From UHGV virus genome UHGV-1578124: DNA of 16,995 nucleotides; one strand, 5' to 3'. Origin of the DNA: a virus. Under the pieces are notes generated by a model. It made no database searches and was not told the DNA's origin. It worked only from the letters and a program-made list of their open reading frames with translations. A program made the position numbers and the translations under genes. Shown in pieces: positions 8,491-16,878 of the stretch. The stretch's first letter is position 1. Each line of letters begins with the position of its first letter.

Positions 8491-9081
8491 TTAAGCCATC
8501 GTCTTAAGCATATTTTTAAGTTTTTTGAGATTCATTGTCTCGTCCAACTTAAATCCAAACCCATTGACGTAATCAATGAAATCAGATTTCTTACTCAGAG
8601 ATAAAGCATACGACATATCAAAGTCATTACTTGGGGTTGATTCTGGTGAAGTGTTCACATCAAAAGAAATCTCTGTAGCAATGCTTTCACGCTCTCTCAT
8701 ATTATCAATAAGATTACATGTGTAGTTTGCTGGATAGAATGATGTTGAGCCAGATACATAACTATACTTTGAGTTATGGATGAGGTTAGAGAACACTTTG
8801 AAGAATGTCTCTGAATCGTGACATACAAGCTTAAATTCACTATTAGCACCAAGAGCCATTAATGAATATGGGCTTTCACCATCAATTGTGTAGTCTGGAT
8901 TTCTGGATTGTACAGTCACGCGCATAAGGTTGTTTGCAATAGTCTTCTGCTTAAATGAGCTTGGAACATAGTGCATACCTCTTTCACACTGATTGACCAA
9001 TTCTTTTAGAAGGTCATCAGAATACGGTGAAGTAATTGATACAGAACCATCACCGTTGTAATTAAAACTCACGTTTAACAT
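8491..9081 (-). CDS. hypothetical protein (196 aa)
   Basis: Long ORF with ATG start, overlapping the upstream gene by 7 nt. Confidence 0.6.
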   Translation of the reverse strand: MLNVSFNYNGDGSVSITSPYSDDLLKELVNQCERGMHYVPSSFKQKTIANNLMRVTVQSRNPDYTIDGESPYSLMALGANSEFKLVCHDSETFFKVFSNLIHNSKYSYVSGSTSFYPANYTCNLIDNMRERESIATEISFDVNTSPESTPSNDFDMSYALSLSKKSDFIDYVNGFGFKLDETMNLKKLKNMLKTMA

Positions 9082-9308
9082 TTACCTGTTCTCCTGCGGT
9101 TAATAATCTTGCTGCAATAGAGAAATGAAGCAAATTCACTGGAAGAAACCATTAACACTTGTTCACTAGATTGAGCGATAGCTCTGAAATACATACCAGT
9201 TAAAGCATCATAGTGCTTATTCTTACCAATCGAAGCTATATACCCATGACTCTTTGCAGTTTGGTACAAATCAATAATATCTGTGATTTCTAATTGGGAG
9301 CTACACAT
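9075..9308 (-). CDS. hypothetical protein (77 aa), first gene of the minus-strand block
   Basis: ATG with AGAGGA 5 nt upstream; lies next to the divergent intergenic region. Confidence 0.55.
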   Translation of the reverse strand: MCSSQLEITDIIDLYQTAKSHGYIASIGKNKHYDALTGMYFRAIAQSSEQVLMVSSSEFASFLYCSKIINRRRTGKC

Positions 9309-10152: not shown

Positions 10153-11568
10153 ATGAGCGAATTATTTAACCACGCAAAATTACATGCTGGTTTGACTGAA
10201 AATGGTGCTGTTAACCATCTGACCTCAATGTCTGCCTTGGTAGACTTTTATAAGGCTGCTGGTTCAAGCCGTAACTACCCAGAGACTCTACCAAATCTGT
10301 TTTACAAAGCTCTGCGAGAAGATATCGATGTAGCGGTTCGAATCTTACTTCATATGCGAGATGCACGAGAAGGTATGGGAGAACGTAAAGCATTCAGAAC
10401 TGTCCTCTCAGAATCTATCAGAACCAACATACTTGATGAGTTCCAAGTTCTGCGTATCATGGCTAAGATTTCTGAACTAGGTCGTTATGATGACTTCAAA
10501 ATCTTCGTAGGTACTCGTTACGAGACTGATGCTTTCAAGCACATTGAGCAAGGATTGTTAGACCCAAATACTTCAGCGTTAGCTGCTAAGTGGTTGCCAA
10601 GGGTTAAGAAGCGTCACATGAATTTTGTAAAGCGTTTCTGCAAGTTTGCAAATCTAAGCCAGAAAGAGTATCGTCTGATGTTATCAGCACTGTCAGATAC
10701 CGTAGAGCAAAAGATTTCTGCAAATGAGTTTGGTGAGATTGATTACAGCAAGCTTCCTTCACTGGCTGCTGCACGTTATCAGAAATTGTTCACACGAAAA
10801 GGTGGAGAACGTTATGCAGAGTATGTAAAAGCTCTGACAGAGGGTACTACCAAGATTAACGCTGGTGCTGTTTACCCATATGATATCACCAAAGCTGTGA
10901 AGTACGGTCGTAGTGAAGTGGCTAATGAGCAATGGAAAGCACTGCCAAACTGGATGAAGGATGGTGAAAACATTCTTTGCATGACTGACGTATCAGGCTC
11001 TATGACGTGTGAACGTCACGGTTCTGTAGACGCTCTTGATATTGGTGTATCTTTGGCGTTATACGTCGCAGAACGCAATACAGGGTGTTTTAAAGATGAG
11101 TTAATGGTTTACTCCACAAATCCATTCTTTATCACTCTAAGTGGCTCTCTGAAGAATCGTATGGCTCAGGTCATGTCACATGTAGAGTATGGTTCAACAA
11201 ACCTTCAAGCTGCTTTTGACAGGATTCTTGAAATTGGTAAAAGAAATAACTTGACTCAAGATGCAATGCCACGTAAGCTTATCATCTTCTCTGACATGCA
11301 GTTTAACTCTGTTGATGGTCAGCGTGGTAATACTAACTTCGAAGCAATTCGTCGTAAGTATGAAGAATCAGGTTATGAAATGCCTCAGTTGGTATTCTGG
11401 TATCTGGCAAATCGTGGTGGTAACTGCGAAGTGTCTATTAAGGATAACGGAGTAGCAATGGTTTCAGGGTTCTCTCCAGCTACATTAAAGGCTCTACTTG
11501 GTGGTGAGAAGTTTGACCCAATCAGCGTAATGCTAAAAGCAGTAATGTCTGAACGTTACGATTGGTAA
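10153..11568 (+). CDS. vWA-domain protein with ~270-aa N-terminal helical domain
   Basis: ATG (MSELFNH...) with GAGAGAG upstream; the track ORF starts earlier at 10084. MIDAS-like D-V-S-G-S-M near residue 280, then downstream T and D positions consistent with a vWA fold. Confidence 0.75.
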   Translation: MSELFNHAKLHAGLTENGAVNHLTSMSALVDFYKAAGSSRNYPETLPNLFYKALREDIDVAVRILLHMRDAREGMGERKAFRTVLSESIRTNILDEFQVLRIMAKISELGRYDDFKIFVGTRYETDAFKHIEQGLLDPNTSALAAKWLPRVKKRHMNFVKRFCKFANLSQKEYRLMLSALSDTVEQKISANEFGEIDYSKLPSLAAARYQKLFTRKGGERYAEYVKALTEGTTKINAGAVYPYDITKAVKYGRSEVANEQWKALPNWMKDGENILCMTDVSGSMTCERHGSVDALDIGVSLALYVAERNTGCFKDELMVYSTNPFFITLSGSLKNRMAQVMSHVEYGSTNLQAAFDRILEIGKRNNLTQDAMPRKLIIFSDMQFNSVDGQRGNTNFEAIRRKYEESGYEMPQLVFWYLANRGGNCEVSIKDNGVAMVSGFSPATLKALLGGEKFDPISVMLKAVMSERYDW

Positions 11569-11586: not shown

Positions 11587-11615
11587 TTGACAATGTTGTT
11601 GATACCCTGTAAGAT
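11587..11615 (+). promoter_or_regulatory. sigma70-like promoter TTGACA-17-TAAGAT
   Basis: Hexamers at 11587-11592 and 11610-11615; near-duplicate of the element at 13619. Confidence 0.5.
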
Positions 11616-11677
11616 GTTCTACATCGAAACGGAAAAGAGTTTTTCTAAAAGATTTTCAAAATGTTTTAAAAAACCTC

Positions 11678-11707
11678 TTGACAAACACTAAAAAATAATG
11701 TTATAGT
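11678..11707 (+). promoter_or_regulatory. sigma70-like promoter TTGACA-18-TATAGT, ~27 nt before the first tRNA
   Basis: Hexamers at 11678-11683 and 11702-11707. Confidence 0.55.
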
Positions 11708-11733: not shown

Positions 11734-11813
11734 CTCCGTTTAGCTCAGTTTGGTTTAGCAGCACTTGCTTTGGGAGCAAGGGGTCGAGGGTTCAAATCCT
11801 TCAACGGAGACCA
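11734..11813 (+). tRNA. tRNA-Pro (anticodon TGG)
   Basis: Acceptor CTCCGTT/AACGGAG; anticodon stem CTTGC/GCAAG, loop TTTGGGA; T-arm GAGGG-TTCAAAT-CCTTC; discriminator A; CCA encoded. Confidence 0.85.
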
Positions 11814-11819
11814 AATTAT

Positions 11820-11897
11820 GTTCCAGTAGACAAATTGGTAAAGTCACCACACTTTCAATGTGGAGTTTTGAGGGTTCAAGTCCCTTCTGGAACGCCA
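11820..11897 (+). tRNA. tRNA-Glu (anticodon TTC)
   Basis: Acceptor GTTCCAG/CTGGAAC; anticodon stem CCACA/TGTGG, loop CTTTCAA; T-loop TTCAAGT; discriminator G; CCA encoded. Confidence 0.8.
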
Positions 11898-11901
11898 AAT
11901 T

Positions 11902-11974
11902 TGACAGAAGACCAAATACAGCAAACAACTTTTACTTTTCGCGCATAGAAAACATAAAAAGCTTGGTCTGGTCA
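11902..11974 (+). ncRNA. structured spacer element E1 (bulged two-helix family)
   Basis: Outer helix TGAC (11902-05) / GTCA (11971-74); inner helix AGACCAA (11909-15) / TTGGTCT (11963-69); unpaired AGA opposite G. Confidence 0.55.
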
Positions 11975-11982
11975 TTAAGAAT

Positions 11983-12059
11983 CGCGGGTATAGAGAAAGG
12001 GCGTCTCACATGTCTCATTAGCATGGCAACGGTTGGTTCGACTCCAACACCCGCCTCCA
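11983..12059 (+). tRNA. tRNA with CAT anticodon (Met, Ile2 or initiator)
   Basis: Acceptor CGCGGGT/ACCCGCC with C1-C72 mismatch; D-stem GAGA/TCTC; anticodon stem CATGT/GCATG, loop CTCATTA; T-arm GTTGG-TTCGACT-CCAAC; discriminator U; CCA encoded. Confidence 0.65.
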
Positions 12060-12062
12060 AAT

Positions 12063-12130
12063 TTACAGAAGGCCGTTTACAGCAATTCAAACAATTTTAT
12101 CGGAAAATTAAAATGAATACGGTCTGGTAA
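12063..12130 (+). ncRNA. structured spacer element E2
   Basis: Outer TTAC (12063-66) / GTAA (12127-30); inner AGGCCGT (12070-76) / ACGGTCT (12119-25) with one G-U pair; AGA opposite G. Confidence 0.55.
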
Positions 12131-12140
12131 TGTTAAACAT

Positions 12141-12217
12141 GGTTAGGAAGCACATAAGGCATGTGCGGTCGGCTGTTAACCGAATGGCACAGGGTTCGAA
12201 TCCCTGACTAACCGCCA
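12141..12217 (+). tRNA. tRNA-Asn (anticodon GTT)
   Basis: Acceptor GGTTAGG/ACTAACC; D-stem GCAC/GTGC; anticodon loop CTGTTAA; T-arm CAGGG-TTCGAAT-CCCTG; discriminator G; CCA. Confidence 0.8.
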
Positions 12218-12284
12218 AATTTGGGAGAGAAGCGATTGCTCACCGATTTGTAAGGTGCAAGTCCTTAGCCTGAATAGAATAAAA

Positions 12285-12373
12285 TGCGTCGTTATCCCGT
12301 AGATGGAAGCGGTGGTGACTGTAAATCACTTGTCATTACGACTCGGTAGGTTCGACTCCTTCACGGCGCACCA
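12285..12373 (+). tRNA. tRNA-Tyr (anticodon GTA), type II
   Basis: Acceptor GCGTCGT/ACGGCGC; anticodon stem GGTGA/TCACT, loop CTGTAAA; long variable arm with GTC/GAC stem; T-loop TTCGACT; discriminator A; CCA. Confidence 0.8.
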
Positions 12374-12379
12374 AATAAA

Positions 12380-12456
12380 GGTTATGTAGTTTAACTGGTC
12401 AAAATACTCCCCTGTCACGGGAGATGATGAGGGTTCGAATCCCTTCGTAACCGCCA
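12380..12456 (+). tRNA. tRNA-Asp (anticodon GTC)
   Basis: Acceptor GGTTATG/CGTAACC; anticodon stem CTCCC/GGGAG, loop CTGTCAC; T-arm GAGGG-TTCGAAT-CCCTT; discriminator G; CCA. Confidence 0.85.
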
Positions 12457-12514
12457 AATTTGAGAGGGCTTTTTAGCCCCTCCCTTAAAGAGTTCTTTCG
12501 AGTATTCTTTAAAG

Positions 12515-12594
12515 GAGCAGAAGACCAAATTCAGCAAGCAACAAAAATATTTCAAGCCAATTTAATTTGAAAAATTTAAAACTTGGTCTGGTTC
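12515..12594 (+). ncRNA. structured spacer element E3
   Basis: Outer GAGC (12515-18) / GTTC (12591-94) with one G-U; inner AGACCAA (12522-28) / TTGGTCT (12583-89); AGA opposite G. Confidence 0.5.
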
Positions 12595-12602
12595 CAACAA
12601 TT

Positions 12603-12734
12603 TTACAGAAGACCGTTTACAGCAAACAATAAACAATCTATTTCTCTTATAAAGAAAAGGCGAAGGTTCGAATCCTTCACACGTTACGGCGTGTTGGTGT
12701 AATGGAAGCACTTAAGATAAATACGGTCTGGTAA
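12603..12734 (+). ncRNA. structured spacer element E4 with internal tRNA-like module
   Basis: Outer TTAC (12603-06) / GTAA (12731-34); inner AGACCGT (12610-16) / ACGGTCT (12723-29). Apical region 12662-12711 holds a canonical T-arm, an ACACG/CGTGT hairpin and a D-arm-like GTG-TAATGGAAG-CAC. Confidence 0.55.
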
Positions 12735-12738
12735 TCCT

Positions 12739-12871
12739 CTTTGCAGTGACTTATGGAGCTAATATGTCGTCCCATGAGTGCCGATGAGTTTCTTGAGCAT
12801 GATTCTAGATTAGCTTACTAAGAGACAACTCTACAAACCCTTTAGCAAGGTTTGCGTAGGTTACTGCAAAG
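12739..12871 (+). ncRNA. candidate structured RNA closed by a long-range helix
   Basis: CTTTGCAGTGAC (12739-50) pairs with GTTACTGCAAAG (12860-71). Interior holds two overlapping mini-ORFs (12764-12787 MSSHECR, 12784-12813 MSFLSMILD), the first with GGAG 6 nt upstream. Confidence 0.35.
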
Positions 12872-12881
12872 ATGATTTAAT

Positions 12882-12957
12882 GGAAGTGTAGCAGAATGGT
12901 GATGCGGCAGACTTTTAATCTGACAGGCGACGGGTTCGAATCCCTCCACTTCTACCA
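12882..12957 (+). tRNA. tRNA-Lys (anticodon TTT)
   Basis: Acceptor GGAAGTG/CACTTCT; anticodon stem CAGA/TCTG, loop CTTTTAA; weak T-arm (GACGG...CCCTC); discriminator A; CCA. Confidence 0.7.
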
Positions 12958-12962
12958 AATTC

Positions 12963-13029
12963 GCCCTTAACTGAAGAACACATGCGCGGCTGGAGACACC
13001 CACTCAATCAGTTCTTCTACAAAGGGCAA
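12963..13029 (+). ncRNA. large imperfect hairpin
   Basis: GCCCTT + GAAGAAC (12963-79) pair with GTTCTTC + AAGGGC (13011-29) around a 4x4 internal loop; ~31-nt apical loop; no U-tract follows. Confidence 0.4.
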
Positions 13030-13037
13030 CTTATTAC

Positions 13038-13114
13038 GGTTCAGTCGCAGATAAGGTAATGCAAGGGTTTCATAAGCCCTATGAATGTGGGTTCGATTCC
13101 CACTTGAACCTCCA
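13038..13114 (+). tRNA. tRNA-Met (anticodon CAT; could be Ile2 or initiator)
   Basis: Acceptor GGTTCAG/TTGAACC; anticodon stem AGGGT/GCCCT, loop TTCATAA; T-arm GTGGG-TTCGATT-CCCAC; discriminator U; CCA. Confidence 0.75.
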
Positions 13115-13116
13115 AT

Positions 13117-13191
13117 TGTGGGTTAGCATAAATGGTAATGCAAACGGCTGATAACCGTTAGAAGAGGGTTCGATACCCTCACCTACAACCA
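13117..13191 (+). tRNA. tRNA-Ile (anticodon GAT)
   Basis: Acceptor TGTGGGT/ACCTACA; D-stem GCAT/ATGC; anticodon stem AACGG/CCGTT, loop CTGATAA; T-arm GAGGG-TTCGATA-CCCTC; discriminator A; CCA. Confidence 0.8.
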
Positions 13192-13206
13192 AATTCAATA
13201 AAGTTG

Positions 13207-13235
13207 TTGATATTGAGATGTGACTACTTTATAGT
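13207..13235 (+). promoter_or_regulatory. sigma70-like promoter TTGATA-17-TATAGT
   Basis: Hexamers at 13207-13212 and 13230-13235; would drive the ~200-nt non-tRNA segment before tRNA-Arg(TCT). Confidence 0.5.
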
Positions 13236-13241
13236 AACCTT

Positions 13242-13403
13242 AGTTTTCGTTAGCGTAGCGTCTATTTTGCAAACTTAAAAATAAATGCAAACGATAATGT
13301 TTTTCTGGCAGTAGCTTAATAGGCTAAACACCAGTGAGGTCTTCCAACCCCTCATCAAAGAATTTGGCGTACTAGCCCACGGTATGATTAATAAGGTGGG
13401 CAT
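13242..13403 (+). ncRNA. candidate small RNA / transcribed spacer
   Basis: Lies downstream of the 13207 promoter; hairpins TAGC/GCTA (13312-26), TGAGG/CCTCA (13334-53), GCCCAC/GTGGGC (13375-13401); no tRNA fold and no ORF. Confidence 0.3.
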
Positions 13404-13440
13404 CTTTAAGGGCTTTCTAAGAGAGTCTTTAAAGATTAAT

Positions 13441-13517
13441 GCACCCTTAGTTCAATTGGATAGAGCAACGGTCTTCTAAATCGTTAGTTACAGGTTCGAA
13501 TCCTGTAGGGTGTGCCA
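13441..13517 (+). tRNA. tRNA-Arg (anticodon TCT)
   Basis: Acceptor GCACCCT/AGGGTGT; D-stem GTTC/GAGC; anticodon stem ACGGT/ATCGT, loop CTTCTAA; T-arm ACAGG-TTCGAAT-CCTGT; discriminator G; CCA. Confidence 0.85.
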
Positions 13518-13618
13518 ATTAGTTAGCAGATTACTTAGACGACCTTAGCGGGTCTTCCTGTAGGGAGGTGGTCTGTATCTCATGTTTTCCAGAACATGTA
13601 AATAATCTGAGAAGGGGC

Positions 13619-13647
13619 TTGACAGTGTTGTGATAATACGGTAAGCT
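13619..13647 (+). promoter_or_regulatory. sigma70-like promoter TTGACA-17-TAAGCT
   Basis: Hexamers at 13619-13624 and 13642-13647; the block TTGACAgTGTTGTGATA...TAAG matches the 11587 element. Confidence 0.45.
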
Positions 13648-13659
13648 TCGAATTATAGT

Positions 13660-13742
13660 ATGGGACGATGTTAAGACACTAAGGCATGTGCGTAAGCCTC
13701 CAAAACTTACTCAAAGGGGTTCGATTCCTCCGTCCCATGCCA
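13660..13742 (+). tRNA. tRNA-Trp (anticodon CCA), atypical 80 nt
   Basis: Acceptor ATGGGAC/GTCCCAT (perfect); anticodon loop CTCCAAA; T-loop TTCGATT; discriminator G; CCA. There are about 7 extra nt between the acceptor stem and the D-arm. Confidence 0.6.
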
Positions 13743-13755
13743 AAGTCTCATTAGG

Positions 13756-13843
13756 GGTAGGTAGCGGCTAATGGTAGCCAAACTGTCTTGAAAACAGTTG
13801 CCACTGTAGAGATACGGTGAGGGTTCGACTCCTTTACTTACCG
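13756..13843 (+). tRNA. tRNA-Ser (anticodon TGA), type II
   Basis: Acceptor GGTAGGT/ACTTACC; anticodon stem ACTGT/ACAGT, loop CTTGAAA; variable-arm hairpin CTGTA-GAGA-TACGG; T-loop TTCGACT; discriminator G; 3' tail reads CCT, not CCA. Confidence 0.75.
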
Positions 13844-13923
13844 CCTAATAAGATTTAATTCCCGCGCTCGTCGAACAAGCTCGGTTTTTACTCGTGTATT
13901 GGCGTACACGGCACGACTATAAA

Positions 13924-13938
13924 ACACCTAGTAGGTGT
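13924..13938. promoter_or_regulatory. 15-bp palindrome ACACCTA-g-TAGGTGT (candidate protein-binding site)
   Basis: Perfect 7-bp inverted arms around a central G, in the 250-nt tRNA-free spacer 13847-14093. Confidence 0.4.
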
Positions 13939-14093
13939 CACGGAGAAGAGATAGTATCAAGCTCTCCAAAGGTTCTAGTCACCGGATTGAATAAGACTAT
14001 ATAAAGACTGTTTAGGTCTTTTTAGAGAATTGCTGAGGCATTTGATACCATTGTTGCTTTGGCGTCTTAGCAGTTCTCTACAAAGATTTAATG

Positions 14094-14171
14094 GGAGATT
14101 GACGGTAATTGGTAAACCTACCATCCTTAGAAGTTGGTGTTTGAGGGTTCGAATCCCTTGTCTCCTACCAA
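14094..14171 (+). tRNA. tRNA with anticodon TAG (Leu codon CUA), type I
   Basis: Acceptor GGGAGAT/GTCTCCT (G-U pairs at both ends); anticodon stem CCATC/GTTGG, loop CTTAGAA; T-arm GAGGG-TTCGAAT-CCCTT; discriminator A; CCA; no long variable arm. Confidence 0.6.
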
Positions 14172-14178
14172 ATTAATG

Positions 14179-14254
14179 CAGGTGTAGCAAAATGGTTATG
14201 CGGCTGACTCTTAATCAGTAAGACGATGGGTTCAATTCCCTCCACCTGTACCAA
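14179..14254 (+). tRNA. tRNA-Lys (anticodon CTT)
   Basis: Acceptor GCAGGTG/CACCTGT; anticodon stem GCTGA/TCAGT, loop CTCTTAA; same weak T-arm as Lys(TTT); discriminator A; CCA. Confidence 0.7.
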
Positions 14255-14260
14255 ATATCG

Positions 14261-14336
14261 GGGATGTAGTTTACATGGTTAAAACATAAGTTTTGCAAAC
14301 TTAAGTACAGGGTTCAATTCCCTGCTTCTCCACCAA
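14261..14336 (+). tRNA. tRNA-Ala (anticodon TGC)
   Basis: Acceptor GGGGATG/CTTCTCC with a G3-U70 wobble (the known Ala identity pair); D-stem GTTT/AAAC; anticodon stem TAAGT/ACTTA, loop TTTGCAA; T-arm CAGGG-TTCAATT-CCCTG; discriminator A; CCA. Confidence 0.85.
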
Positions 14337-14342
14337 TTAGTG

Positions 14343-14417
14343 CATCCATAGTTTAAACGGGAAAATTACAGTCTTCCAAACTGAGGTTGAGGGTTCGATT
14401 CCCTCTGGATGCTCCAA
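14343..14417 (+). tRNA. tRNA-Gly (anticodon TCC)
   Basis: Acceptor GCATCCA/TGGATGC (perfect); anticodon loop CTTCCAA; T-arm GAGGG-TTCGATT-CCCTC; discriminator U (as in Gly tRNAs); CCA. Confidence 0.85.
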
Positions 14418-14423
14418 ATAATG

Positions 14424-14500
14424 CTGCTTTCGTATAATTGGCTATTACACATCCCTTGTAAGGATGGAGATGCGGGTTCAAGTCCTGTGAGCAGCACCAA
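14424..14500 (+). tRNA. tRNA-Thr (anticodon TGT)
   Basis: Acceptor GCTGCTT/GAGCAGC; anticodon stem CATCC/GGATG, loop CTTGTAA; T-loop TTCAAGT; discriminator A; CCA. Confidence 0.8.
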
Positions 14501-14504
14501 TTTG

Positions 14505-14588
14505 AGGTCAAGTGAAAGGCCGCTTGAGTCAACTGAGACCGTAGCAAATTCCACGGAGTTGAGTTAGCGGCACAACTTCAGACCTCTT
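14505..14588 (+). ncRNA. nested-helix structured element between tRNA-Thr and tRNA-Val
   Basis: Closing helix GAGGTC (14505-10) / GACCTC (14583-88), second helix GCCGC/GCGGC, internal direct repeat TTGAGT x2; followed by a CTTTTAAAG motif. Confidence 0.4.
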
Positions 14589-14594
14589 TTAAAG

Positions 14595-14669
14595 CTCGCT
14601 TAGTTTATACGGTAAAGCCCCATCCTTACAAGTTGGTGAAGAAGGTTCAAGTCCTTCAGCGAGTACCAA
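14595..14669 (+). tRNA. tRNA-Val (anticodon TAC)
   Basis: Acceptor GCTCGCT/AGCGAGT; D-stem GTTT/AAGC; anticodon stem CCATC/GTTGG, loop CTTACAA; T-arm GAAGG-TTCAAGT-CCTTC; discriminator A; CCA. Confidence 0.8.
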
Positions 14670-14670
14670 G

Positions 14671-14748
14671 TTCCAGTATCCCAATTGGCAGAGGATGCAA
14701 GCTCAAACCTTGTATTAGTGACGGTTCGAATCCGTCTTGGAACACCAA
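14671..14748 (+). tRNA. tRNA with anticodon CAA (Leu codon UUG), type I
   Basis: Acceptor GTTCCAG/TTGGAAC; anticodon stem GCAAG/CTTGT, loop CTCAAAC; T-arm GACGG-TTCGAAT-CCGTC; discriminator A; CCA; 75 nt. Confidence 0.6.
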
Positions 14749-14762
14749 ATTAGGAGATTCCT

Positions 14763-14975
14763 ATGAAGCCTTATGGTAGACATGGTAAAGTTGAAATTGC
14801 AAGTTGTGGTTGCTGTGCTTCTCACGATGGTGAAGAAGATTACTACAAGTGGCGTACAGACCATCGTAGACGCTTTCTCAGAAGAGATAAGAAGAAAGCT
14901 AGACAGGAATCTCAAAAGAATATTGCAGAATTAGTTCAAACGGATAGAGCAGCAGCCTACGAAGTTGTTTGTTAG
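14763..14975 (+). CDS. small basic cysteine-containing protein (70 aa)
   Basis: AGGAG 5 nt upstream of ATG; contains C-G-C-C; its last ~17 codons run through the 5' two-thirds of tRNA-Arg(ACG), so the true 3' end is uncertain. Confidence 0.45.
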   Translation: MKPYGRHGKVEIASCGCCASHDGEEDYYKWRTDHRRRFLRRDKKKARQESQKNIAELVQTDRAAAYEVVC

Positions 14976-15001
14976 GGGTTCGAATCCCTTATTCTGCACC
15001 A
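14925..15001 (+). tRNA. tRNA-Arg (anticodon ACG)
   Basis: Acceptor GCAGAAT/ATTCTGC (perfect); D-stem GTTC/GAGC; anticodon stem GCAGC/GTTGT, loop CTACGAA; T-arm AGGGG-TTCGAAT-CCCTT; discriminator A; CCA. Confidence 0.85.
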
Positions 15002-15019
15002 ATTTTAGAAGGTAATTAT

Positions 15020-15247
15020 ATGCGTAAACTCATTATTGAAAGGCATAAAGATGCTGACAAGATTGCAACAACACAAGTTGGGGACACTGACTTCATTCTT
15101 GTAGGTTGGAAATGTGACCCAATAGCAGTTATGAAGGTTGTTCATGGTTTTGCAGGAATTGAATTTAATCAAATCATATTTGAAACGCTATTACCAGAAA
15201 ATCAGGATACGTGTAATAACGCATATGTCCTGACAAGAGTTCGTTAG
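15020..15247 (+). CDS. small protein (75 aa), paralog of 15292-15519
   Basis: AGAAGG ~7 nt upstream of ATG (MRKLIIERH...); the track ORF starts earlier inside the tRNA. Shares blocks with the next gene (GDT-FI-VGWK-DP, FAG-E, QVIFET-LPEN-DTCNNAY-LTRV). Confidence 0.65.
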   Translation: MRKLIIERHKDADKIATTQVGDTDFILVGWKCDPIAVMKVVHGFAGIEFNQIIFETLLPENQDTCNNAYVLTRVR

Positions 15248-15273
15248 GGGTTCGAATCCCTTATTCTGCACCA
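15244..15273 (+). pseudogene. tRNA 3' fragment (T-arm + acceptor 3' strand + CCA)
   Basis: A 31-nt stretch (GTTAGGGGTTCGAATCCCTTATTCTGCACCA, from 15243) is identical to the 3' end of tRNA-Arg(ACG) at 14971-15001; no matching 5' acceptor strand, D-arm or anticodon arm upstream. Confidence 0.65.
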
Positions 15274-15291
15274 AATTTAAAAGGGTAACTT

Positions 15292-15519
15292 ATGTTTAAA
15301 CTCATAGTTGAAAAACACCCAGAAGATGACAAGCTTGAAACAGGGAGATTTGGAGATACTTTCTTTATCAGAGTTGGCTGGAAAGCTGACCCATTAGAAG
15401 TTAGAAAGATTGTCTACAACTTTGCTGGTTTGGAATTAAAGCAAGTCATCTTTGAAACAATGTTGCCAGAAAATAAAGATACATGCAATAACGCATATAT
15501 TCTTACAAGAGTTAGTTAG
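15292..15519 (+). CDS. small protein (75 aa), paralog of 15020-15247
   Basis: AAAGGG upstream of ATG; stop codon TAG (15517-19) overlaps the first nucleotides of tRNA-Gln(TTG). Confidence 0.65.
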   Translation: MFKLIVEKHPEDDKLETGRFGDTFFIRVGWKADPLEVRKIVYNFAGLELKQVIFETMLPENKDTCNNAYILTRVS

Positions 15520-15593
15520 GGGATTAGTTTACAAGGTTAAAACCTCGGTCTTTGAAATCGAAGAAGTTGGTTCAATTCCAACATCCCCCGCCA
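15518..15593 (+). tRNA. tRNA-Gln (anticodon TTG)
   Basis: Acceptor AGGGGAT/ATCCCCC with unpaired 1-72; D-stem GTTT/AAAC; anticodon stem TCGGT/ATCGA, loop CTTTGAA; T-arm GTTGG-TTCAATT-CCAAC; discriminator G; CCA. Confidence 0.75.
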
Positions 15594-15595
15594 AT

Positions 15596-15674
15596 GCTCC
15601 ATTACTCCAATTGGCAGAGAGGCCAGACTTAAAATCTGTGTTATGTATCGGTTCGAATCCGATATGGAGTACCA
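15596..15674 (+). tRNA. tRNA with anticodon TAA (Leu codon UUA), type I
   Basis: Acceptor GCTCCAT/ATGGAGT; anticodon stem CAGA/TCTG, loop CTTAAAA; T-arm ATCGG-TTCGAAT-CCGAT; discriminator A; CCA; 76 nt with a 7-nt variable region. Confidence 0.6.
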
Positions 15675-15680
15675 AATATT

Positions 15681-15756
15681 AGCAGTGTAGCATAACTGGC
15701 AATGCTCCAGCCTCTGAAGCTGAAAGATTAAGGTTCAAATCCTTACGCTGCTGCCA
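15681..15756 (+). tRNA. tRNA-Gln (anticodon CTG)
   Basis: Acceptor AGCAGTG/CGCTGCT; D-stem GCAT/ATGC; anticodon loop CTCTGAA; T-arm TAAGG-TTCAAAT-CCTTA; discriminator G; CCA. Confidence 0.75.
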
Positions 15757-15787
15757 CTTCTAAGGGTTCTTACGAGAGTCCTTAAAT

Positions 15788-15864
15788 GTGGCCTTATCAT
15801 AAACGGATAATGACCCATGCTGTGAACATGGTCTATACGGGTTCGATTCCCGTAGGTCACCCCA
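15788..15864 (+). tRNA. tRNA-His (anticodon GTG)
   Basis: Acceptor GTGGCCT/AGGTCAC; D-stem TCAT/ATGA; anticodon stem CCATG/CATGG, loop CTGTGAA; T-arm ACGGG-TTCGATT-CCCGT; discriminator C; CCA. Position -1 is T, not the usual encoded G. Confidence 0.8.
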
Positions 15865-15871
15865 ATTCAAT

Positions 15872-15947
15872 AGCTCAATTAGCTTATATGGTTAAAGCGC
15901 GTGTCTGAAAAACATGAGAACAGGGTTCAAATCCCGATGGGCTACCA
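15872..15947 (+). tRNA. tRNA-Phe (anticodon GAA)
   Basis: Acceptor AGCTCAA/ATGGGCT; anticodon stem CGTGT/ACATG, loop CTGAAAA; T-loop TTCAAAT with a weak 3-4 bp T-stem; discriminator A; CCA. Confidence 0.65.
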
Positions 15948-15963
15948 ATTTTATAGGTGCATA

Positions 15964-16698
15964 ATGAAAGAGATGACAGGACAAGGTAAAGAGATTTTCA
16001 GTCTCCTTAAATCCGGTAACGGGTTCTCTAACCCTCTTATTACTGGTGCAGCAGTTCTTGGTGGTACAGTTGCCGCTTCTCAGTCATTAGTAACTTCTAT
16101 TGGTTCTGTATCAGACCCAGCTACCCAGCAAATTCTTATTGCTGCTGGCTTGACAACTGCCTTACTAAGCAGCTTTACAACAAGCCTTGGTAGCACCACT
16201 TCAACGACAACCACTTTAACTGACTATGGACAGAAGTCTGTAGATGAGTTTTCACAACGTATGCAAGTAGCTAAAGGTTACTCTAACGTTATGGGAGCAG
16301 CAGGTGAACAAGTCGGTTGTACACCGTTTAGTGGAATCATGGGAGTTGCTACAGAGTACGGTAACAAAGCTATGGATTTGATTAATACATCCATAGACGC
16401 TGTAAATGGCGTTCTAAGCGATTTACAAGATGCGATTGATAAAGGACTAGACACCATCTCTGAACTCGCTACACAGGCTGTTACAGTGATTAATGAGGGT
16501 ATGGCAAAGATTACCGCCTACGCTAATGAAGTGGCTCAGATGATTGCAGATGAAGCAGCCCTGATTGCTGACTACCTTAAAACGAATATTAATGGTTTTC
16601 TTGCTAATGTCTTACCAGATTGGTTTGATGATGCTTGTAAAACTGGTGTGATTGATACAATCGCAACTCCAGAGATGAAAGATGCTCTAAACAAATAA
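15964..16698 (+). CDS. hypothetical Ser/Thr/Ala/Gly-rich protein (244 aa)
   Basis: The track ORF starts at 15901 inside tRNA-Phe. First ATG after the tRNA (MKEMTGQ...) has AGGTG 4 nt upstream. Confidence 0.6.
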   Translation: MKEMTGQGKEIFSLLKSGNGFSNPLITGAAVLGGTVAASQSLVTSIGSVSDPATQQILIAAGLTTALLSSFTTSLGSTTSTTTTLTDYGQKSVDEFSQRMQVAKGYSNVMGAAGEQVGCTPFSGIMGVATEYGNKAMDLINTSIDAVNGVLSDLQDAIDKGLDTISELATQAVTVINEGMAKITAYANEVAQMIADEAALIADYLKTNINGFLANVLPDWFDDACKTGVIDTIATPEMKDALNK

Positions 16699-16701
16699 TT
16701 T

Positions 16702-16794
16702 GGAAGATTAACCCTAAAAGGTAAGGGAGTAGTTTGCTAAACTGCCAGTAACCGAGAAATCGGCGTACCAGTTCAAGTCTGGTATCTTCCTCCA
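16702..16794 (+). tRNA. tRNA-Ser (anticodon GCT), type II
   Basis: Acceptor GGAAGAT/ATCTTCC (perfect); D-stem CCC/GGG; anticodon stem GTAGT/ACTGC, loop TTGCTAA; variable-arm hairpin CCGA-GAAA-TCGG; T-arm ACCAG-TTCAAGT-CTGGT; discriminator U; CCA. Confidence 0.8.
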
Positions 16795-16801
16795 AATTAA
16801 T

Positions 16802-16878
16802 GTGTCGGTGGCAGAAATGGATTATGCGCCTGTCTGCAAAACAGGTATATAAGGGTTCAAGTCCCTTCCGATACTCCA
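16802..16878 (+). tRNA. tRNA-Cys (anticodon GCA)
   Basis: Acceptor GTGTCGG/CCGATAC; anticodon stem CCTGT/ACAGG, loop CTGCAAA; T-arm AAGGG-TTCAAGT-CCCTT; discriminator U (as in Cys tRNAs); CCA. Confidence 0.8.

Follow-up and report, generated by a model that had tools for sequence, protein, structure and literature searches.

A tRNA-like module in permuted order inside a candidate Y RNA of Felix O1-like phages

What is a tRNA-like structure doing inside a phage RNA when its arms stand in the reverse of the usual order? The question is raised by a 16,995-nt stretch of phage DNA (UHGV virus genome UHGV-1578124; the window), in which an element called E4 carries a T-arm, a closed acceptor-like stem (AS) and a D-arm between positions 12662 and 12711 of the plus strand. 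A sequence-only reading had left two explanations side by side, a circularly permuted tRNA remnant and a domain that mimics tRNA within a ribonucleoprotein RNA, Y-RNA-like or other. The second agrees with an order of arms shared with YrlA Y RNAs, with a Ro60-fold gene 1 kb upstream and with compensatory changes among related phages, while the first largely fails as a description of the element's present state.

Anatomy of the module and of the RNA that carries it

Read from the sequence, the T-arm, the AS, U8-G9 and the D-arm follow one another without a gap, in the order of a tRNA that has been cut open at the anticodon and sealed at the acceptor end. The parts of E4 are as follows.

12603-12734, plus strand: the whole E4 RNA, delimited by folds and by covariation of the outer stems
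12603-12606 with 12731-12734, plus strand: lower stem, UUAC/GUAA
12607-12609 opposite 12730, plus strand: internal loop, AGA opposite G
12610-12616 with 12723-12729, plus strand: upper stem of 7 bp, AGACCGU/ACGGUCU
12617-12625, plus strand: the UUACAGCAA motif
12641-12657, plus strand: V hairpin, UUUCU/CUUAUAA/AGAAA, in the YrlA variable-arm position and equivalent to the central hairpin of E1-E3
12662-12678, plus strand: T-arm mimic, GAAGG/UUCGAAU/CCUUC, read directly and folded
12679-12694, plus strand: AS, ACACG(U)/UACG loop/(G)CGUGU, read directly and folded
12695-12696, plus strand: linker UG, occupying the tRNA U8/R9 place
12697-12711, plus strand: D-arm mimic, GUGU/AAUGGAA/GCAC, read directly

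The letters given for the three hairpins by the sequence-only reading are exact, and folding returns all three. They appear in the minimum free energy fold of both the isolated 57-nt stretch and the whole of E4, and the folding energy by itself is unremarkable (z about -1.25). The T-arm has a G53-C61-type closing pair and the loop UUCGAAU, is placed at 12662-12678 by the Rfam tRNA model and by a YrlA-core model alike, and has a stem that in relatives is either unchanged or shifted to G-U. For the AS, read as ACACG-TTACGG-CGTGT, RNAfold favours 6 bp (ACACGU/GCGUGU) under a UACG tetraloop. The D-arm-like hairpin with its conserved GG is likewise present, but its stem is better taken as 4 bp (GTGT/GCAC, with one U-G pair) than as GTG/CAC, which leaves a 7-nt loop, AATGGAA, holding A14, R15, G18, G19 and A21. 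The V hairpin has a loop of 6-7 nt and variable sequence, and its stem is degenerate in phages of the Moogle type.

Among the nucleotides that make tertiary contacts in tRNA, those of the T-loop (UUCRA) and D-loop (GG), U8, A14 and A21 are present. The Levitt pair 15:48 is not standard here, with A15 against C48 in the window and A15 against A48 in Felix O1 and Moogle. Linkers of 25 and about 11 (11-15) nt, rich in A and U, join this core to the outer stems, and no anticodon-stem analogue with clear covariation is seen in them. A strict descriptor asks for a T-arm directly abutting a closed hairpin, then a linker of 2 nt and a GG-bearing D-arm. With both strands of the window scanned (16,995 nt), its single match is the module itself, and about 1 Mb of DNA from related phages gives no match on the minus strands.

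E4 has three shorter relatives in the window.

11902-11974, plus strand: E1, lower stem UGAC/GUCA, upper stem AGACCAA/UUGGUCU
12063-12130, plus strand: E2, lower stem UUAC/GUAA, upper stem AGGCCGU/ACGGUCU
12514-12595, plus strand: E3, lower stem GGAGC/GUUCC, upper stem AGACCAA/UUGGUCU

Common to all four are a lower stem, an upper stem of 7 bp, the AGA/G internal loop between them and the motif UWCAGCAA. The outer stems covary across the paralogs, across orthologs and in distant phages; the E2 lower stem of SUSP-type phages, for example, reads UUGC/GCAA, a compensatory change. Judged by sequence, E1-E4 are four paralogous putative small RNAs within the tRNA cluster of Felix O1-like (Ounavirinae) phages, and the module is, as had been proposed, an insert in a repeated element, present in E4 and missing from E1-E3. 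A minus-strand frame of 49 codons with a GTG start (12562-12711) was rejected as a coding reading because close relatives carry indels of 1, 2 and 4 nt in the loops and linkers, together with compensatory changes in the stems.

Conservation and the tRNA alternatives

The module is widely kept. E4 is retained at a coverage of at least 80% in 246 of 253 matching phage records. The sequence-only reading had held that its proposal would fall if covariance models gave nothing above noise and relatives lacked the insert or showed it decaying. Phages both near and far have retained the module, altering it by compensatory changes and not letting it decay. Among 15 Ounavirinae variants, three of the six AS pairs are altered on both sides, giving the versions ACACG/CGTGT, ACTCG/CGAGT and ACCCTTC-GCCAAACA-GAAGGGT, and 96.6% of the AS alignment cells are paired in register versus 41-52% when the strands are slid. 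The D-arm is invariant in this subfamily apart from loop position 20. The Moogle-type AS has 7 bp and a hairpin loop that reads G-CCA-AACA; two versions from distant phages (L376 and L387b) similarly have an AS of 7-8 bp followed by (G)CCA. From these alignments the AS helix covaries between phage groups.

The absence of a standard tRNA, another point of the sequence-only reading, is borne out by ARAGORN, which finds nothing at E4 in either its tRNA or its tmRNA search. The Rfam tRNA model (RF00005) does match 12612-12686 (30.9 bits against a cut-off of 29) in another register, in which the V hairpin serves as the anticodon arm. This match has two mismatches among its seven acceptor pairs and 15 unstructured nucleotides where the D-arm belongs, and its register is not conserved, the match being gone in Felix O1, Moogle and HP1 and partial in SUSP2. 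Rfam models of the tmRNA family, the permuted ones included, do not match E4. Past the D-arm come A/U-rich nucleotides and then the outer stem, with no anticodon arm. The reported lack of CCA is also correct for the window, where the AS loop is UUACGG; CCA occurs only in the Moogle-type, L376 and L387b versions. On these searches and alignments, the module is neither a tRNA, nor a tmRNA, nor a decaying pair of tRNAs.

Two readings would nevertheless tie it to ordinary tRNA genes. According to one, the module is the neutral wreck of two adjacent tRNA genes and is under no selection, the T-arm and acceptor 3' strand being what is left of a dead upstream tRNA (12612-12686) and the acceptor 5' strand and D-arm what is left of a dead downstream one. 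The setting inside a dense tRNA cluster, the RF00005 score slightly over its cut-off and the resemblance of the Moogle-type loop G-CCA-AACA to a tRNA end plus spacer all speak for it. So does the caution of Chen et al. that dimeric tRNAs can mimic YrlA (PMC4201824). Our own covariance model R1, built on 21 bacterial YrlA-like cores, aligns all three E4 helices (26.1 bits in the window, at 12654-12712, and 32.2 in Felix O1, the top match of the search) but does not discriminate, because tRNA-tRNA junctions, at 22-30 bits, score as high as E4.

Against a wreck stand the AS strands, which are complementary in the three Ounavirinae versions and in about ten unrelated distant ones; this counts because unrelated neighbouring tRNAs need not pair with each other. 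The missing tRNA halves are absent everywhere, the tRNA-model match is flawed and not conserved, as described, the module is retained in the 246 records, and wherever it occurs the same scaffold surrounds it. As an account of the present state the wreck is largely refuted, and we regard it as highly improbable. The word remnant is probably right only for the evolutionary origin, as a truncated tandem tRNA duplication.

The other reading takes the module for a circularly permuted tRNA gene, of the kind found in the red alga Cyanidioschyzon, or for a two-piece tRNA- or tmRNA-like molecule that is aminoacylated and active in translation after a cut in the acceptor loop and the gain or exposure of CCA. 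E4 does share with permuted tRNA and two-piece tmRNA genes the succession of T-arm, acceptor 3' strand, loop, acceptor 5' strand and D-arm, and with them the likely origin in tandem duplication followed by truncation. Some bacterial loci have the T-arm, AS and D-arm followed by a genuine anticodon arm, and the Moogle-type, L376 and L387b versions, with an AS of 7-8 bp and (G)CCA, recall the YrlA of Mycobacterium smegmatis, whose 7-bp stem is cut by RNase P and given a CCA (PMC4201824). In E4, however, the D-arm leads to A/U-rich nucleotides and the outer stem, and the lone hairpin with a 7-nt loop lies on the wrong, variable-arm side and varies in loop length and sequence. The window copy has an AS of only 5-6 bp, a UACG loop and no CCA; it also has no G3:U70 and no tag reading frame, and neither ARAGORN nor the permuted-tmRNA models report a tmRNA at E4. 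We find this reading scarcely credible.

A Ro60-like gene beside the same scaffold

The gene upstream of the cluster offers another lead.

10153-11568, plus strand: gene for a Ro60-like protein (Pfam DUF2828+DUF7788; PHROG 850, 'RNA-binding protein')
11587-11707, plus strand: two sigma-70-like promoters, TTGACA-17-TAAGAT and TTGACA-18-TATAGT, from a consensus scan; the pair is also a direct repeat

The list of open reading frames starts this gene at a GTG (10084); the homologues' start corresponds to the ATG at 10153. E4 begins 1,035 nt past its stop, on the same strand. The protein has no match to Pfam TROVE, and searches of PDB sequences gave nothing significant, with profile-to-PDB E-values of about 1-2, so a comparison of folds was needed. 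An AlphaFold model made with a 50-sequence alignment (a single-sequence version reached a pLDDT of 39) combines a helical TROVE-like ring with a vWA domain carrying a MIDAS DxSxS motif and matches Ro60 by fold at 12-18% identity. By this predicted structure the upstream neighbour probably encodes a divergent Ro60-fold protein.

The promoter pair sits between the Ro-like gene and the cluster of tRNAs and E elements. A further promoter-like sequence over the 5' end of E4 (TTTACA-17-AACAAT, 12602-12630) is weak (9/12) and is not common to E1 or E3, and was set aside. The plus strand around E4 holds no convincing intrinsic terminator.

The association of gene and scaffold extends far beyond the Ounavirinae. 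The gene family is very large: the DUF2828 homologues scored number more than 3,000 and come from Ounavirinae, from T4-like phages and from many that are uncultured. Across 75 distant phage loci that carry a homologue of the Ro60-like gene (37-49% identity), a scaffold descriptor found, within 700 nt of the gene, 63 elements on the gene strand versus 5 on the other, in 45 loci; under the same strict descriptor 30 of the 75 loci have no scaffold near the gene. The scaffold is present at 23 of 44 distant loci that have no tRNA at all. Its family-wide consensus is A-A-G-G ... U-W-CAGCAA ... C-C-U-G. A looser pattern (AGAAGRCC-N(95-125)-GGTCTGG) run over viral contigs gave chance matches only (L001-L120) and was discarded.

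Nine modules with the T-arm, AS and D-arm that are not tRNAs, picked by explicit descriptors and ARAGORN filtering, lie in distant loci; all are on the gene strand, and every one is enclosed by the scaffold, each time with a different stem sequence. Their AS has 5-8 bp, and its sequences are wholly different yet paired, the pairing of T-arm, AS and D-arm being partly guaranteed by the descriptor. All 14 modules parsed in diverse phages have U8, under a descriptor that accepted any two linker bases, and the Levitt pair is standard in 10 of 11 modules outside the Ounavirinae (G:C in six, A:U in four). The inserts are interchangeable: the same scaffold holds the permuted tRNA mimic, a tRNA core in normal order without an acceptor stem, or other classes of hairpin.

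These loci bear on the idea that the module is a tRNA-like processing signal, one that draws RNase P, RNase Z or RNase E in the manner of tRNA punctuation and has no part in a Ro-like ribonucleoprotein. tRNA-like structures act as cleavage signals elsewhere, in mascRNA and in mitochondrial transcripts. The cluster is polycistronic and is preceded by just two promoter-like sites, and the variants with 7 bp and GCCA resemble RNase P substrates. There is, however, nothing obvious to liberate at E4, which is flanked by E3 and another hairpin and by no mRNA. The module also stands beside the Ro-like gene in phages without a nearby tRNA cluster, always in the CAGCAA scaffold, and short paralogs without the mimic have the same scaffold. 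RNase P, moreover, acts poorly on a closed stem of 5-6 bp such as that of the window copy (Chen et al. 2014, PMC4201824). We consider a pure processing signal very unlikely.

Somewhat less improbable, though still unlikely, is that the E RNAs are functional with a partner other than the Ro-like protein, as a sponge or regulator of a host RNA-binding protein or as a stabiliser of mRNA in cis. E4 and the Ro-like protein are linked only by gene neighbourhood, which is guilt by association; the E RNAs lack the canonical Ro-binding motif; and many elements adjoin the gene on its 3' or 5' side, where they could act in cis. The closest look-alike of the scaffold, the Class I RNA, binds an RRM protein, for which a sponge or regulator relation has been proposed (Kjellin et al. 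2021, PMC7919456). The strand bias of 63 to 5 close to the gene, which holds in very diverse phages with or without tRNAs, weighs on the other side. Several copies are present, upstream or downstream, and in Ounavirinae up to 1 kb off among the tRNAs; this copy number and scattered placement fit separate RNAs better than a UTR element. Interchangeable inserts are also the behaviour of Y RNAs, which combine a Ro-binding module with an effector module (bioRxiv 10.1101/312249).

Likeness to known RNAs and a proposed function

The nearest architecture is that of YrlA, in which a V hairpin, a T-arm, a closed acceptor-like stem and a D-arm follow one another (PMC4201824; bioRxiv 10.1101/312249), and whose tRNA-like domain from Salmonella Typhimurium has a crystal structure (PDB 6CU1; bioRxiv 10.1101/312249). 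RNAs of this type are bound by Ro60 and modified by TruB and DusA. E4 runs in the same order, through V hairpin, T-arm, closed AS, U-R linker and D-arm, and like YrlA has paired 5' and 3' ends, in its case a stem with the AGA/G internal loop. The T- and D-arms of YrlA are conserved in sequence (bioRxiv 10.1101/312249); so are those of E4, with the AS free in length and sequence. The D-loop of Felix O1-type E4, AAUGGUA, is that of S. Typhimurium YrlA, some E4-type relatives have the 7-bp AS and CCA of the M. smegmatis RNA, and E4 lies on the same strand as a Ro60-fold gene and less than 4 kb from it.

The differences are also clear. The neighbouring protein is a very divergent Ro60 relative (DUF2828/DUF7788, with no Pfam TROVE match), and the GNCGAAN0-1G motif is replaced by a scaffold of AAG, stem and UWCAGCAA, closed by stem and CUG. 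None of E1-E4 has that motif in its 5' region; the lone literal GGCGAAG (12659-12665) belongs to the variable loop and T-stem and is lost in Felix O1 and Moogle. E4 further has long A/U-rich linkers where YrlA has a kinked anticodon-like stem, a Levitt pair that is non-standard in the Ounavirinae copies, and a place in a tRNA cluster beside three paralogs that lack the mimic. The Infernal search suggested by the sequence-only reading brought up no YrlA or Y RNA family on E4 in an Rfam scan at E-values up to 10.

Taken with the phage distribution, these likenesses make it likely that E4 is a phage Y RNA of the YrlA type, with a tRNA mimic that brings a tRNA-binding factor to the Ro-like protein of the phage. 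E4 would be part of a transcript that starts at the promoters near 11.6 kb and includes the tRNAs; processing of the flanking tRNAs would free it, and its closed terminal stems would protect it. Gene linkage suggests that the scaffold shared by E1-E4 is the handle by which the Ro60-like ring protein of the phage would hold them. This handle would consist of the lower stem with the AGA/G loop, the upper stem (7 bp, closed by AG...CU, with G next) and the single-stranded UWCAGCAA. By analogy with the S. Typhimurium domain, the insert (12641-12711) may fold as the top half of a tRNA, with the T-arm stacked on the AS and U54-U55-C56 of the T-loop contacting G18-G19 of the D-loop to form an elbow. 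Such a look-alike, without anticodon or CCA, could tether or titrate away an elbow-recognising factor of the host or the phage, the candidates being PNPase or some other exoribonuclease, RNase P, a modification enzyme, or a defence nuclease directed at tRNA. During infection the Ro-like ribonucleoprotein would then act on RNA metabolism or on defence. For Moogle-type versions, with their 7-bp AS and G-CCA, the prediction is RNase P cleavage that yields a two-piece RNA, as in M. smegmatis; the UACG-capped AS of 5-6 bp in the window is predicted to remain closed, as in Salmonella YrlA.

There is phage precedent for such a partnership. The Ro60 of the Thermus phage phiLo binds two phage Y-like RNAs, Yrl1 and Yrl2, and host PNPase (NAR 2025, PMC12135203), and has been proposed to hijack PNPase and to help against defence (PMC12135203). 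Both phages have a Ro60-fold protein, that of phiLo being a structural match of the window protein, and at least two stem-bulge-stem RNAs beside its gene. The phiLo protein differs in being a recognisable TROVE protein, and its Yrls have a CGAA motif, sit upstream of the gene and have no described tRNA-like domain. Closer to the window is the Felixounavirus Bas63, whose gp130 is a Ro60-like homologue that counters the Ppl defence (PhageMaP preprint, bioRxiv 10.1101/2024.10.10.617714). The authors guessed that Y RNAs lie in the tRNA cluster and suspected annotated tRNA genes, with no RNA identified (bioRxiv 10.1101/2024.10.10.617714). The record of this phage (JohannRWettstein) is among those that match E4 and carries it; the candidates here differ from theirs in being the unannotated spacers E1-E4 and not annotated tRNAs.

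An unexpected likeness links the scaffold to the Class I RNAs (Rfam RF01414), which have been reported only from dictyostelids and which bind Rnp1A, an RRM protein (Kjellin et al. 2021, PMC7919456). Every defining feature listed for them is shown by E1-E3 and by E4 once its insert is taken out: an AAG start with its G paired to the C of the closing CUG(U), a terminal stem of 6-7 bp kept in structure and not in sequence, the motif (C/U)UUACAGCAA right after the 5' strand, and a variable A/U-rich interior. The phage short forms have 46-75 nt, and several paralogs occur per genome. The RF01414 description, namely an AAG start, a covarying 6-bp stem, the 11-nt motif CCUUACAGCAA and a CUGU end, is found in full apart from the end of the window copy, which is CUGG; E4 reads ...AAG-ACCGU-UUACAGCAA ... 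ACGGU-CUG-G. The model scores 21.2 bits on E4, 25.8 on E2 and 16.9 on E1, with 26.9 and 26.1 for the best relatives, against a gathering score of 41.5. Nothing reaches that threshold in nine related loci (125 kb), and full-length matches (1-56) below it, at 16.9-26.9 bits, recur on such elements in unrelated phages. At 120-132 nt E4 differs in size from Class I RNAs (42-65 nt), which have their own DUSE promoter and no described tRNA-like inserts, and the literature yielded no link between Class I RNAs and Ro60.

We raise as a speculative idea, doubtful on present evidence, that E1-E4 and about 50 further elements beside DUF2828 genes in unrelated phages, all built on the stem and UUACAGCAA scaffold, may be of one kind with the Class I RNAs, both being ligands of a second, divergent Ro60-like branch (DUF2828/vWA) that also occurs in eukaryotes. 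If this were true, the Class I RNAs would count as that branch's Y RNAs, and the modular logic would be visible in the phage RNAs, one handle with swappable heads such as the tRNA mimic. A real kinship would give a protein partner and a mechanism to an orphan class of eukaryotic RNAs that is abundant and whose function has been a puzzle since 2004.

For the phages themselves, E1-E4 are candidate RNA partners of an anti-defence Ro60-like protein, with exact coordinates and a shared handle. Being concrete candidates, they therefore allow binding, deletion and structural experiments to be designed. The pairing of Ro60 with Y RNAs would reach beyond one Thermus phage and a few mycobacteriophages into a very large family of phage proteins, with a recognition motif unlike the classical CGAA and one handle carrying interchangeable inserts, that is, a modular RNA. 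Annotation is affected as well: the Rfam tRNA model barely passes its threshold at E4, and 'hypothetical protein' calls run across E3/E4 in several GenBank records.

Structure of E4 and its paralogs

The window belongs to a Felix O1-like (Ounavirinae) phage whose nearest relatives are the Shigella phages Henu11, ESh19 and Sf13-Sf19. ARAGORN places 25 tRNA genes on its + strand (11734-16878). Within this cluster, repeat analysis and alignment identified four paralogous small RNA elements:

11902-11974 (+), E1
12063-12130 (+), E2
12514-12595 (+), E3
12603-12734 (+), E4, which carries the tRNA-like module

All four share a scaffold with a lower stem of 4-5 bp, an asymmetric internal loop (AGA facing G), a 7-bp upper stem (AGACCNN/NNGGUCU) with the motif UWCAGCAA immediately 3' of its 5' strand, and a central U-rich/A-rich hairpin. 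The outer stems covary. The upper stem reads ..AA/UU.. in E1 and E3 and ..GU/AC.. in E2 and E4, and the lower stem occurs as UGAC/GUCA, UUAC/GUAA or GGAGC/GUUCC among the paralogs and as UUGC/GCAA in E2 of the SUSP-type phages. E4 combines this scaffold with an insert 3' of the central hairpin, made up of a T-arm, a closed acceptor-like stem (AS) and a D-arm in that order (T-AS-D). The module lies in a 425-nt gap between tRNA-Asp and tRNA-Lys.

Computation shows this anatomy. The bases at 12662-12711 (GAAGG-TTCGAAT-CCTTC, ACACG-TTACGG-CGTGT, TG, GTG-TAATGGAAG-CAC) are identical to those in which the sequence-only reading had seen a T-arm, a closed hairpin and a D-arm-like hairpin, and RNAfold returns three adjacent hairpins in the isolated 57 nt and in whole E4 alike. 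The middle hairpin has 6 bp and a UACG tetraloop, and the last has a 4-bp stem, including one U-G pair, and the 7-nt loop AAUGGAA. In tRNA numbering, the module has G53-C61, U54-U55-C56, A58, U8, A14, R15, G18-G19 and A21. The folding energy is unexceptional (z about -1.25), so the case for the module rests on comparison rather than thermodynamics. A strict T-AS-D descriptor (T-arm, immediately abutting closed hairpin, 2-nt linker and D-arm with GG) matched only the E4 site on both strands of the window and, in about 1 Mb of DNA from related phages, had no match on the minus strands.

Several other features of the cluster were seen. Directly 3' of E4, before tRNA-Lys, a 145-nt long hairpin (12733-12877, +; MFE -48.6 kcal/mol, z = -5.08, with 0 of 200 shuffles folding as well) is probably a further unannotated structured RNA; its roughly 23-bp basal stem is retained in Felix O1 (with four compensatory pairs), Moogle, HP1 and SUSP2, and its interior is divergent. 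The gene at 12288-12368 (+) resembles a class-II tRNA-Tyr(GUA), having a long variable arm and CCA. ARAGORN missed it, and it scores 22.8 bits, under the Rfam cut-off; its counterpart is labelled tRNA-Tyr in some relatives and 'Pseudo-GTA' in HP1. A 272-nt tandem duplication (14967-15510, 74% identity) takes in the 3' part of tRNA-Arg(ACG), with the result that an orphan copy of T-arm, acceptor and CCA stands at about 15245-15277. In two contigs (L122 1359-1545 and L124 1213-1552, equivalent to the window gap 13192-13440), Rfam tmRNA_permuted matches of 29.8 and 24.9 bits (cut-off 47) begin in tRNA-Ile and extend into the next spacer, and probably owe their scores to the tRNA portion.

Conservation of E4 and other annotations of the site

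The view that E4 is not a standard tRNA gene held up. ARAGORN found neither a tRNA nor a tmRNA there, and CCA is absent from the AS loop of the window's copy. The Rfam tRNA model does give 30.9 bits on 12612-12686 (cut-off 29), with the central hairpin taken as the anticodon arm and the T-arm as T-arm, two acceptor mismatches and the D-arm missing; this match is absent in Felix O1, Moogle and HP1 and only partial in SUSP2. The sequence 3' of the D-arm contains no anticodon arm and no tag reading frame. A minus-strand ORF over E4, annotated in some records, is ruled out by 1-4-nt indels between close relatives.

The sequence-only reading had named loss or decay of the insert in related phages as a sign against it. 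Instead, E4 is kept at a coverage of at least 80% in 246 of 253 matching phage records, spanning Felixounavirus, Suspvirus and Mooglevirus on Escherichia, Salmonella, Shigella and Citrobacter hosts and including JohannRWettstein (= Bas63). The T and D arms are nearly invariant among 15 distinct variants, and the AS occurs in three versions:

ACACG/CGTGT, in the window and SUSP types
ACTCG/CGAGT, in the Felix O1 type
ACCCTTC/GAAGGGT (7 bp), loop G-CCA-AACA, in the Moogle type

The AS covaries, with pairing in 96.6% of alignment cells (41-52% with the partner slid) and both-sided changes in three of its six pairs across the 15-variant alignment. Only about three independent events lie beneath these changes, so AS covariation alone is modest evidence.

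Related RNAs beside Ro-like genes

Upstream of the elements on the same strand lies a gene for a Ro60-like (Ro-like) protein of 471 aa (10153-11568, +), separated from E1 by 334 nt and from E4 by 1,035 nt. The protein matches Pfam DUF2828 and DUF7788 and PHROG 850 'RNA-binding protein'. Scoring of candidates yielded more than 3,000 homologues, virtually all of which lie on phage contigs. A D-x-S-x-S MIDAS motif is invariant in the family. Sequence searches of the PDB gave no significant match; four of the six weak profile matches there are Ro60/TROVE proteins, and computation predicts a Ro60 fold. The homologue in the Felixounavirus Bas63, gp130, was called Ro60-like and counters the Ppl defence system (PhageMaP preprint, bioRxiv 10.1101/2024.10.10.617714). 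The Ro60 of phage phiLo binds host PNPase and two phage Y-like RNAs (PMC12135203).

The strongest evidence comes from the wider family. Eighty loci encoding Ro-like relatives were taken from IMG/VR, 75 of them outside the Felix O1 group, with proteins 37-49% identical to the window's. There the T-AS-D descriptor found nine modules to which ARAGORN assigns no tRNA; each lies on the gene strand, and several (L317, L387, L389) abut the Ro-like gene directly. Part of the base pairing in these distant modules follows from the descriptors themselves; the E scaffold around them is a feature outside the T-AS-D requirements. All nine are enclosed by a 6-8-bp stem, each of different sequence, with U[AUG]C[AC]GCA(A) immediately 3' of its 5' strand. 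Also outside those requirements are U8, present in 14 of 14 parsed modules, and a Levitt pair (tRNA positions 15:48) of G15:C48 or A15:U48 in 10 of 11 non-Ounavirinae modules.

Within 700 nt of the gene, a separate scaffold descriptor (7-bp stem plus motif) picked up 63 elements on the gene strand versus 5 on the opposite one. Such elements lie near the gene in 45 of the 75 loci; in the other 30, the strict descriptors found nothing near it. A scaffold element is present in 23 of 44 loci without any tRNA, so the association follows the gene rather than tRNA clusters. When elements must also start with AG, end with C[UA]G and contain CAGCAA exactly, the gene strand retains 53, with 39 distinct stems, and the opposite strand has none left. 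This gene-RNA linkage is strand-specific across diverse phages. The lengths of the 53 are bimodal (46-75 nt and 89-183 nt), and the long forms carry varied inserts:

permuted tRNA mimic
normal-order D-anticodon-T core, with the scaffold in place of the acceptor stem
recurrent CCUUUCUGGAGGGGAAAG hairpin
other, larger domains

The normal-order cores (D-arm, anticodon-like arm, T-arm; L350 6731-6830, L387 6739-6836 and 6848-6942) represent a second tRNA-mimic topology in the same RNA family. The third class, with a conserved CCUUUCUGGAGGGGAAAG(C/U)AAAAACUCGCCAA segment, lies beside the Ro-like gene in several unrelated phages (L319 6276-6370; L321 3133-3232; L323 149-280; L330 1265-1373; L359 6734-6828).

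Yersinia phage P778, with a Ro-like protein 53% identical, has scaffold copies with the stems GGACUGU/ACAGUCC, GGAUUC/GAAUCC and GGACUC/GAGUCC, one copy bearing a T-arm only. The same phage (vB_YenM_P778, L187) has a tRNA-like gene at 8996-9150 with a 7-bp acceptor stem including G3:U70, D and T arms and an insertion of about 80 nt in the place of the anticodon arm, and further orphan T-arms at about 9100 and 9365. In another locus (L339 8605-9054), a phage tmRNA (Rfam 75.4 bits) within a tRNA cluster adjoins the Ro-like gene and several scaffold elements.

Apart from tRNA, the one family that Rfam proposes for these elements is the Dictyostelium Class I RNA (RF01414), always in full-length alignments. 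Two of the matches (L329, L373) coincide exactly with scaffold elements of unrelated phages.

RF01414 scores in bits, all under the 41.5-bit threshold, which nothing reached in 125 kb
E2, window: 25.8
E4, window: 21.2
E1, window: 16.9
E2, SUSP2: 26.9
E2, Moogle and HP1: 24.6
L329 (8402-8459): 26.1
L373 (3960-4017): 23.4

Class I RNAs are 42-65 nt long with many paralogs, and are defined by an AAG start, a CUGU end, a terminal stem of 6 bp rich in compensatory changes, an 11-nt motif CCUUACAGCAA adjoining its 5' strand and a variable interior (PMC7919456). The phage short forms match these published features point for point: E1-E3, L329 and L373 have an AAG start, a covarying 6-7-bp stem, UUACAGCAA, a CUG end and about 60 nt. 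That the two are the same kind of RNA is nonetheless a tentative idea, and we think it rather unlikely.

Comparison with YrlA and proposed function

YrlA, a bacterial form of the Y RNAs that partner Ro60, has a 5'/3' stem bearing a GNCGAAN0-1G motif, an optional hairpin at the variable-arm position, and nearly invariant T and D stem-loops with a variable closed acceptor-like stem between them; it is encoded on the same strand as Ro60, at most 4 kb away (Chen et al., PMC4201824). Its crystal structure is a genuine tRNA L-shape (bioRxiv 10.1101/312249). E4 is like YrlA in arm order and conservation pattern, and the D-loop of the Felix O1 type, AAUGGUA, is identical. The window's E4 differs in missing the GNCGAA motif (a literal GGCGAAG at 12659-12665 is misplaced and unconserved) and a standard Levitt pair, with A15 opposite C48; the Ounavirinae copies depart from the standard at this position.

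A covariance model was built from 21 bacterial YrlA-like cores, gathered by a pattern scan of bacterial genomes from which tRNA dimers were removed with ARAGORN. It aligns all three E4 helices, with Felix O1 the top match (32.2 bits), followed by SUSP2 (30.4), Moogle (27.1) and the window (26.1), and is supportive but not discriminating because tRNA-tRNA junctions also reach 22-30 bits, with the middle helix skipped.

Arm order, conservation pattern and linkage to the Ro-like gene favor the second option of the sequence-only reading, a tRNA-mimic domain of a Y-RNA-like RNA. E4 is probably a Y RNA of the YrlA type that partners the Ro-like protein and has a tRNA mimic as its effector domain; we have much less confidence in any particular effector. 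Y RNAs combine a Ro-binding module with an effector module (bioRxiv 10.1101/312249). In YrlA the latter is a tRNA mimic, recognized by TruB and DusA and, when the stem is 7 bp, by RNase P, and a phage Ro60 with its own Y-like RNAs engages PNPase (PMC12135203). On this view, E4 would be excised from the tRNA-cluster transcript, its scaffold would bind the phage Ro-like ring, and its head would present a tRNA elbow by which a tRNA-recognizing factor is tethered or decoyed. E1-E3 would be forms without a head, which may serve to gate or titrate the Ro-like protein. RNase P might split the Moogle-type E4, with the window's E4 staying closed.

In bacterial genomes, three Bacteroidota-like contigs (L244, L288, L298) also show T-AS-D units in tandem that run on into a genuine-looking anticodon stem-loop and so form complete circularly permuted tRNA-like arrays.
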